Assembly: GCA_964631415.1 (NCBI GenBank)
Contig: CAZVZC010000005.1
Coordinates: forward strand, 18,084 to 82,083
Length of the DNA: 64,000 bases
Direction of reading: 5' to 3'
From: an uncultured archaeon
Lineage (GTDB): Archaea; Asgardarchaeota; Thorarchaeia; Thorarchaeales; Thorarchaeaceae
Shown here in pieces: positions 25,100 to 26,199 of this stretch (position 1 is its first letter; each line of letters starts with the position of its first letter). The notes below the pieces were generated by a model, which made no database searches, was not told where the DNA came from, and saw nothing but the letters and a program-made list of their open reading frames with translations. The translations under genes were made by a program, and so were the position numbers.

Positions 25100-25726
25100 T
25101 TACTCCTTCACATGTACCTGTATAGCCTCTAGAATACTCTCTGCCCGAGCTATCTCCTGCTGAACTTCGTCCAGTTCTGTTCTCAGCCTGTATGTGTATC
25201 CCGAGCGATTCCCGAATCTCTCCAGATGTCCCTTTCCATCGTTCCACATGCGAGCGAGATAAGTTGAGGCTGTGCTCTTGGGCAGTTCCTCACTGAATGT
25301 AGTTTCATAAATCTCAGCCACATCAAGTGACGAGAACTTACCGTGTTTGAACGAGGCATATATGACAACCTGCATTCTCTCATAGTTGCTCAGCGACTCA
25401 AAATCGCTTTCACCGGTTGCGCTTTCGGCTGTTTCTGCCGCAGGCACAAAGCTGTACCCAGTACTGGTTTCTAGGAACACTCTGAATTTCCCAAGCATTT
25501 CCTCGACAGTACCCTTTACCTGCAGACTCGACTCTTCTCCACTAGACTCGTCAGAGATCACCACTTTGAAGTCAAAGGGTGACTGAGTCAGTGCGAGGAT
25601 CTTGCGAAAACGGGCTAAGGCCTCATCAGGTCTGACATACTTACACTGAAAGATTTCCCGGAGACCTGGTCCTGAACTATACGTGAACTCGTACACGTAA
25701 TTGGTTCTGTTGTCATCCGCCAACAT
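25100..25726 (-). CDS. Two-domain protein with C-terminal winged helix-turn-helix
   Basis: FSSLDVAEIYE....LPKSTASTYLARM....LERFGNRSGYTYRL wHTH pattern. Confidence 0.8.
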   Translation of the reverse strand: MLADDNRTNYVYEFTYSSGPGLREIFQCKYVRPDEALARFRKILALTQSPFDFKVVISDESSGEESSLQVKGTVEEMLGKFRVFLETSTGYSFVPAAETAESATGESDFESLSNYERMQVVIYASFKHGKFSSLDVAEIYETTFSEELPKSTASTYLARMWNDGKGHLERFGNRSGYTYRLRTELDEVQQEIARAESILEAIQVHVKE

Positions 25727-26199
25727 TCACACCCGCCCTGTTCACAAGAGTTGATTGTGGCTCAGAGTATTCACACCTTTCAAGTTTCAAGAGCAAATAA
25801 GTGTGAGTGTGTGAATTGCGAATATCCTGATAATGACTGGATAGCATATTCGCTGTGCCGCAAGCCACTCCTACCAGTATCAAGAAGACGCAGGCCAGGT
25901 TACAACCGAAAGGAGCCATTGCAACACTATCCGTGCTCGCATTGCCTCAAATGCGTAATTCTCCACGTTTCCTACTATTCACACATTTAACAGCTCTGTG
26001 AATGTGTTTGCAATTCCTCATATGCCTTCTATCTCCGTTCCATAGGAAACGAGGGGGTGTCACCATTCACATAGTCAAACGACTTTATACGACCTTCATT
26101 GGTCAATATGCATCAACTTAGACCTATTTCGCCGAGTAGATTCACACAAAAGGCGCCATTCACACGTTTCGGGTGTGAATGACTGTTGACCCCGTGAAT
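25725..26199. repeat. Array of ATTCACAC octamers in both orientations
   Basis: Exact at 25725, 25769, 25809(rc), 25977, 26140, 26158, 26173(rc); near copies at 25740, 25801(rc), 25996(rc), 26065, 26192(rc). Confidence 0.88.
26037..26058 (+). promoter_or_regulatory. ORB-like origin recognition box with G-string
   Basis: GTTCCATAGGAAACGAGGGGGT, 19/22 identical to the reverse-strand box at 21713-21734. Confidence 0.65.

Follow-up and report, generated by a model that had tools for sequence, protein, structure and literature searches.

Conserved TGTGAAT boxes and a single ORB upstream of a winged-helix gene: a putative accessory flank of an Orc1-type origin locus in Thorarchaeota

The window analysed here is a 64-kb stretch of DNA (C5:18084-82083) from a genome of 2.16 Mb in 81 contigs, 85% complete, which protein matches place in the Thorarchaeota (Asgard); positions below are those of the window. 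The gene under study (25100-25726, minus strand), recognised as an ORF and by predicted structure, encodes a 208-aa winged-helix protein, P0001. Its neighbours are a nucleotidyltransferase-like gene, a SufS-like gene, saccharopine-pathway genes and iorAB. Upstream of it lies a 480-bp spacer (25727-26206) that carries TGTGAAT boxes, one ORB and the putative P0001 promoter, and which may act as a conserved docking region. The gene on its far side, P0002 (26207-27241, minus strand, 344 aa), has only a sub-threshold nucleotidyltransferase match; it occupies the position held by cdc6 in other Asgard families, and in Thorarchaeota it is a conserved neighbour of the spacer on the upstream side. The locus was compared with 48 orthologous Thorarchaeota loci, with 301 genomes of the phylum from 30 GTDB families (profile search), with 20 diverse Asgard loci drawn from 17 families (gene context) and, for whole-chromosome comparison, with the complete 2.58-Mb Thorarchaeota relative CP070658.1.

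The initial annotation of P0001 as a winged-helix protein is borne out by its predicted structure, despite the absence of a Pfam or NCBIfam match. In the AlphaFold (AF2) model (pLDDT 79), an N-terminal ββ-α-ββ-α domain (residues ~10-89; pLDDT 90 when folded alone) is followed by an acidic disordered linker (95-107), a wHTH domain (114-181) and a C-terminal helix (186-206). As observed in structure searches, the C-terminal half matches wHTH regulators of the PadR, Fur, MarR and ArsR types at Z 8-9, and PadR-family chains in particular at Z 8.6-8.9 (91-96 residues aligned, rmsd 3.5-4.5). The winged-helix domains of Cdt1-C and Cdc6 were also retrieved by Foldseek and VIA, tied with dozens of generic wHTH regulators; since they tie, only the wHTH fold class is established, and these matches were set aside as evidence of kinship with initiators. 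For the N-terminal domain no clear structural relative was found, the best match reaching Z 6.1 (tandem KH domains and designed proteins). Sequence searches of Pfam, NCBIfam and the PDB returned nothing meaningful and place P0001 in neither the PadR nor the MarR family, and distant homologues display only sub-threshold matches to Penicillinase_R, MCM_C and CopY. A homodimer prediction obtained no support, and carries no weight in either direction. More than 300 homologues were collected, 70-95% identical within Thorarchaeota, the only group that has the full-length form; the widespread shorter homologues (140-175 aa) consist of one ββ-α unit and the wHTH domain.

The repeat array described in the initial annotation is present in the spacer. 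Seven exact copies of the octamer ATTCACAC are found at 25725, 25769, 25809(-), 25977, 26140, 26158 and 26173(-), and these are the only exact copies in the window, all of them between 25725 and 26180. The total of 12 copies originally given is generous but fair: beyond the exact ones, three have a single mismatch (25801(-), 25996(-) and 26065), and the remaining two (26193 and 25741) are weaker, with two mismatches. Genome-wide, ATTCACAC occurs 51 times in 2.16 Mb (0.024 per kb), so that approximately 0.011 copies would be expected per 480 bp; this spacer is its sole cluster, with no other 500-bp stretch of the genome holding three or more copies. The exact octamer has been amplified in this lineage only, and the element common to the orthologues is its (T)GTGAAT core. 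The heptamer TGTGAAT is present in nine copies in the spacer and at no more than two per 480 bp elsewhere in the genome. A search of 21300-26500 against Rfam matched no RNA family; the spacer thus corresponds to no known RNA gene.

Alignment of the 48 Thorarchaeota loci clearly shows that eight of the boxes are fixed in position, their core being kept in 46-48 of the loci at 87-100% identity, compared to 42% for the remainder of the spacer. The 498-bp upstream regions contain 5-10 copies of GTGAAT each (mean 7.6), against 0.38 in background flanks. Box b1 (25769-25775, plus strand), conserved in 48/48 loci, lies between a TATA-like element and the start codon, where a repressor site would be expected. 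The most conserved block of the spacer (25795-25817, minus strand) comprises box b2, kept in 46/48 loci, followed by the TATA-like TTATTT approximately 70 nt ahead of the P0001 ATG; this block, which on the gene strand reads AATTCACACACTCACACTTATTTG, is probably the P0001 promoter. Boxes b1 and b2 thus bracket the TATA-like block, an arrangement that, as far as sequence can tell, is that of an inverted-repeat operator overlapping the gene's own promoter. Farther upstream, b3 and b4 form an inverted pair (ATTCACAC-N11-CTGTGAAT, 25977-26003; both boxes in 48/48 loci), b5 (ATTCACA, 26065-26071, plus strand) and b6 (ATTCACA, 26140-26146, plus strand) are each kept in 48/48, and b7 and b8 form a second inverted pair (ATTCACAC-N7-GTGTGAAT, 26158-26180; core in 48/48 and 47/48 loci, respectively). 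Both inverted pairs had been noted initially, and both are real. The intervals between successive boxes are 41, 167, 20, 68, 75, 18 and 16 bp, in both orientations, and do not form regular direct repeats. The array was also said to begin at the start codon of the winged-helix gene; a box does exist there (25725), but it was found in just 7 of the 48 orthologous loci.

Within the array lies a full ORB, TTCCATAGGAAACGAGGGGGT (26038-26058, plus strand), with its G-string facing away from the gene. This element had been recognised from the outset as an ORB-like box, and the genome has just one other full ORB, at 21713-21733 (minus strand). It is retained in all 48 loci, at -308 to -346 from the gene, and the array, as its TGTGAAT core, is likewise retained in every one of them; the initial annotation had raised the question of whether orthologous loci would lack the two. 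The partial inverted ORB that it placed at 25961-25975 did not hold up: only a GGAAAC half is present, and it is not conserved as an ORB in the orthologues. Box b5 lies 6-7 nt past the G-string of the full ORB, and the spacing between the two is kept in Thorarchaeota and roughly so in the sister family f2. A fixed contact between b5 and the G-string throughout the phylum was also considered, and was rejected given this restricted conservation.

A candidate origin core lies 4.3 kb from the spacer, at 21713-21873. It consists of the second full ORB (21713-21733, minus strand), an AT-rich stretch (21734-21852; 66-68% AT, maximum 72%) and a degenerate ORB on the plus strand (~21853-21873), and thus contains both inverted ORBs and an AT-rich DUE. 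An inverted ORB pair approximately 145 bp apart is found at the corresponding place, +3.75 to +4.03 kb, in most Thorarchaeota loci. The core and the winged-helix gene are separated in Thorarchaeota by two metabolic genes (22420-25054, plus strand), assigned by Pfam as AlaDH/LKR-like and saccharopine dehydrogenase. The spacer itself holds no second full ORB, and hence no inverted ORB pair, and no AT-rich unwinding element (55% AT overall, 65% in its richest 60 bp). Neither is it adjacent to an orc1/cdc6 gene: the main orc1 orthologue is on contig C14, where no ORB was found upstream of it, and a divergent Orc1/Cdc6 paralogue (46682-47875, plus strand) lies 20 kb away in the window. The two Orc1/Cdc6 paralogues of this genome are 27-30% identical to each other. 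When compared to the origin-adjacent Cdc6 of another Asgard locus (L180), the copy on contig C14 is 63% identical and the paralogue in the window 30%; the orc1 found next to the origin in other Asgard archaea is not the orthologue of the latter.

The ORB-DUE-ORB core is further bracketed by palindromic sequence. Two copies of GAACACGTGTTC delimit the region 21685-21946 (21688-21699 exact, 21935-21946 with one mismatch), and the 12-bp palindrome GAACAYRTGTTC, with a CACGTG core, is seen at 21685-21699 and 21932-21946. Nearly all Thorarchaeota loci (L003-L049, ~+3.4 to +4.1 kb) have two to four copies of GAACAYRTGTTC there, and it is also present in families f2, f19 and f7 (L214, L215, L222 and L224). 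GAACAYRTGTTC is thus a third word conserved in the origin locus.

The origin locus was also sought by nucleotide skew. GC skew, AT skew, gene-strand-corrected GC3 skew and gene-orientation bias yielded nothing significant anywhere in CP070658.1 (permutation p 0.75 for GC/GC3); as this holds across the whole chromosome, the result says nothing for or against the placement of the origin.

The profile search detected P0001 homologues in 183 of the 301 Asgard genomes and in 25 of the 30 families, nearly always as a single copy. The gene resides in loci of a recurring kind, as a rule with an ORB-DUE-ORB core on one side and, on the other, a spacer of ORB and TGTGAA copies adjoining orc1/cdc6 and polD: among the 20 diverse loci, ORBs were found within ~1 kb of it in 17, and orc1/cdc6 was nearby in 14, mostly together with polD-small. 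TGTGAA was the top enriched upstream hexamer in 13 of the 20, with a density of 6.3 per kb upstream of the gene as compared to 0.77 downstream and 0.71 elsewhere. Family f7 has GTTAAC in place of TGTGAA, and a few families have no enriched word. Across these loci, including f7 and the families without an enriched word, the recognition helix (xSTxSTYLxRL) hardly varies, and covariation between motif and protein therefore neither supports nor contradicts direct binding.

The arrangement of the locus recurs in the sister family f2, in which the order is polD-small, cdc6, a 485-bp spacer (about nine TGTGAAT boxes and an ORB), the winged-helix gene, a 97-aa gene, ORB(-)/AT-rich/ORB(+) and iorAB. 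The layout of the window is the same, except that another gene takes the place of cdc6 and that the two saccharopine-pathway genes are inserted where f2 carries the 97-aa gene. In other Asgard families, as in f2, the homologous spacer lies ~1 kb from the ORB/DUE/ORB core and beside orc1. In CP070658.1 the main orc1 and polD-small map at 0.78 Mb and the winged-helix gene and three ORBs at 1.807-1.812 Mb; these ORBs, the same three as in the locus of the gene and the core, are the three best of the whole chromosome. Thus, when the ancestral Thorarchaeota locus split, the gene and its array stayed with the ORB-DUE-ORB core and not with orc1.

One lineage has lost both gene and array. The complete f13 genome G013 has no copy of the gene and no clustered box pairs anywhere, but has kept cdc6 and ORBs; a single TGTGAA is found in the 3 kb of its cdc6/ORB locus. 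In G035, a genome of the same genus, gene and array are both present. This co-loss, seen in a single genome, links the gene with the boxes, and it implies at the same time that the origin of at least one lineage can do without the pair. An ORF with a ParA/MinD-like Walker-A motif (KGGVGKT) was noted in G013 (L235 2834-3019; G013:C1, ~642.9 kb), starting ~1.2 kb from the ORB pair. Family f9 also largely lacks the winged-helix gene (weak matches in 3 of 68 genomes). No canonical ORB at one mismatch or less was found anywhere in two f9 genomes that are 99-100% complete (G009 and G175), and the origin boxes of this family may differ from the canonical ORB.

The explanation that we favour, at a probability of about 0.55, is that the spacer 25727-26206 would be an accessory flank, or fixed docking platform, of an Orc1-type origin locus and not a separate origin. 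Elsewhere in Asgard the same spacer lies ~1 kb from the core and beside orc1, as expected if spacer and core belong to one Orc1-type origin locus, of which the spacer forms a flank. Under this model Orc1/Cdc6 would occupy the single ORB and P0001 the eight conserved TGTGAAT boxes, the two inverted pairs being of the kind bound by dimeric wHTH proteins. Through the promoter-proximal boxes P0001 would repress its own gene, while at the distal boxes, those around the ORB, P0001 and Orc1 may together build a nucleoprotein complex next to the ORB-DUE-ORB core, which lies 4.3 kb from the spacer. Such a complex could either tune initiation or couple the expression of P0001 to Orc1 occupancy.

The most serious alternative is that the spacer is an ordinary control region, in which P0001 is an autoregulated transcription factor with Orc1 as a co-regulator, and that the gene lies near the origin simply because this gene order was inherited, without taking part in replication. 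We consider this rather improbable, though likelier than any of the alternatives below. A related reading, an Orc1-controlled autoregulated regulator, had been offered by the initial annotation and does fit the locus once a tie to the origin is added. The control-region view accounts for the boxes that bracket the conserved TATA-like block, the ORB at approximately -330 and the PadR/MarR-type fold; the promoter-proximal boxes are indeed explained equally well by a purely transcriptional role, and a lineage that lost gene and array while keeping cdc6 and ORBs agrees with it too. Both do too little justice to the association of gene and array with the origin, which is conserved: 17 of the 20 diverse Asgard loci of the gene are ORB loci, the gene remained with the ORBs at the Thorarchaeota split, and eight fixed boxes over 410 bp far exceed what simple autoregulation needs. 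Moreover, a second box cluster is absent genome-wide, so no regulon is visible. A different possibility, to which we give a low probability, is that P0001 is merely a neighbour and that the boxes are read by another protein, either the divergent Orc1/Cdc6 paralogue (46682-47875) or a nucleoid protein. The presence of two paralogues only 27-30% identical to each other lends this some plausibility, as Sulfolobus Orc1/Cdc6 paralogues bind distinct sites (PMC3607249), and so does the change of motif in f7 with no change in the recognition helix; against this, the array lies 5' of the winged-helix gene, not 3', in 13 of the 20 diverse loci, and gene and array are jointly absent in G013.

It is less probable still that the array is a centromere-like partition site, coated by P0001 as ParR, AspA or SegB coat theirs. 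One array per chromosome, close to the origin and upstream of the gene of its presumed binder, would suit such a site, as would a small wHTH protein, but no gene for a ParA/SegA-type ATPase or adaptor was found beside P0001 here or in the Asgard loci examined, and the one ParA-like ORF noted near an origin is that of G013, a genome without the gene. The least probable of all, and in our estimation highly unlikely, is the reading with which the initial annotation began, namely an iteron-like composite origin with a non-Orc1 initiator, that is, a second origin that the winged-helix protein would fire independently, in the manner of WhiP at oriC3. The adjacency of a repeat array and a wHTH gene suggests it, and the winged-helix domains of Cdt1 and Cdc6 are among the tied structural matches, but those matches are generic ties, and the model of P0001 shows a single wHTH, as against the tandem pair of WhiP (PMC3607249). 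With no DUE, no second ORB and irregular boxes in both orientations, the spacer is probably neither a separate origin nor an iteron origin, and a complete, canonical ORB-DUE-ORB core is located 4.3 kb away in the window and at ~1 kb in other families.

A more ambitious form of the accessory-flank reading can be offered only tentatively, as we think it more likely to be wrong than right. According to it, the P0001 family would be a dedicated, sequence-specific second origin-binding factor of Asgard archaea, and perhaps of some TACK archaea, which assembles on TGTGAAT boxes by the Orc1-bound ORB and acts with Orc1 at the three-ORB origin, for instance in the timing or licensing of initiation, or in assisting the loading of MCM.

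The locus resembles, in part, several known systems. In Pyrococcus, a second cluster of an ORB and mini-ORBs bound by Cdc6/Orc1 lies inside dp1, within a 5-kb oriC region (Matsunaga et al. 2007, PMC1904270). As with these satellite ORBs of the Thermococcales, initiator boxes are found here a few kb from the unwinding core in one conserved locus, with cdc6 and polD-small included in the wider group; unlike them, the spacer is non-coding and linked to a winged-helix gene, and it combines a single ORB with copies of another, unrelated repeat; in this genome, too, orc1 and dp1 are no longer adjacent. At Sulfolobus oriC1 the element ucm is read by UBP, a 111-aa, basic, beta-rich nucleoid protein with hundreds of sites, and no link of its gene to the origin is described (Dhanaraju et al. 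2025, PMC12141716). The likeness lies in a second element beside ORBs and in a non-Orc1 reader, here predicted, at an Orc1-type origin. P0001 differs in its wHTH fold, in the location of its gene within the origin locus and in having its presumed sites gathered in a single cluster in each genome, and the two proteins are related neither in sequence nor in fold, the beta-rich saddle of UBP having no counterpart in the alpha/beta and wHTH domains and acidic linker of the 208-aa P0001.

WhiP, a Cdt1-related protein with a tandem pair of winged helices, fires Sulfolobus oriC3 independently of Orc1 proteins (Samson et al. 2013, PMC3607249). Here too a winged-helix protein is encoded beside repeats that it presumably binds, at a chromosomal origin. 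By the description of WhiP, P0001 is unlike it in combining one wHTH with an unassigned alpha/beta domain and in having an array that is always accompanied by ORBs and has no DUE. With autoregulated repressors of the PadR, MarR and BlaI types, P0001 shares the wHTH with a C-terminal helix (Z 8-9) and inverted-repeat sites over its own promoter; it departs from them in its lack of Pfam or NCBIfam membership, its extra N-terminal domain, at least eight sites over 410 bp and the absence of a ligand-linked or regulon context.

A literature search on Asgard replication origins and on the TGTGAAT motif found no paper. The locus presents a concrete candidate for an Asgard origin, with three ORBs, an AT-rich core and two further conserved words, together with an uncharacterised, single-copy family of predicted DNA-binding proteins that resides in the origin locus across most of the phylum. 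Should P0001 act with Orc1, it would be a new component of archaeal initiation, in the lineage closest to eukaryotes; should it be only a regulator, its promoter would still be a rare case of one carrying a conserved Orc1 box.

Two further features were observed near the orc1/cdc6 genes. A tRNA gene that seems to contain an intron (46359-46461, plus strand), missed by ARAGORN and matched by Rfam at 34 bits (E 9e-6), lies just upstream of the Orc1/Cdc6 paralogue of the window. In CP070658.1, an overlapping dyad, TTCCAATGGAA, without a G-string, is located directly upstream of the relocated main orc1 (G001:C1:784514-784542), and may represent a mini-ORB that remained at the promoter of orc1 when the locus was divided.
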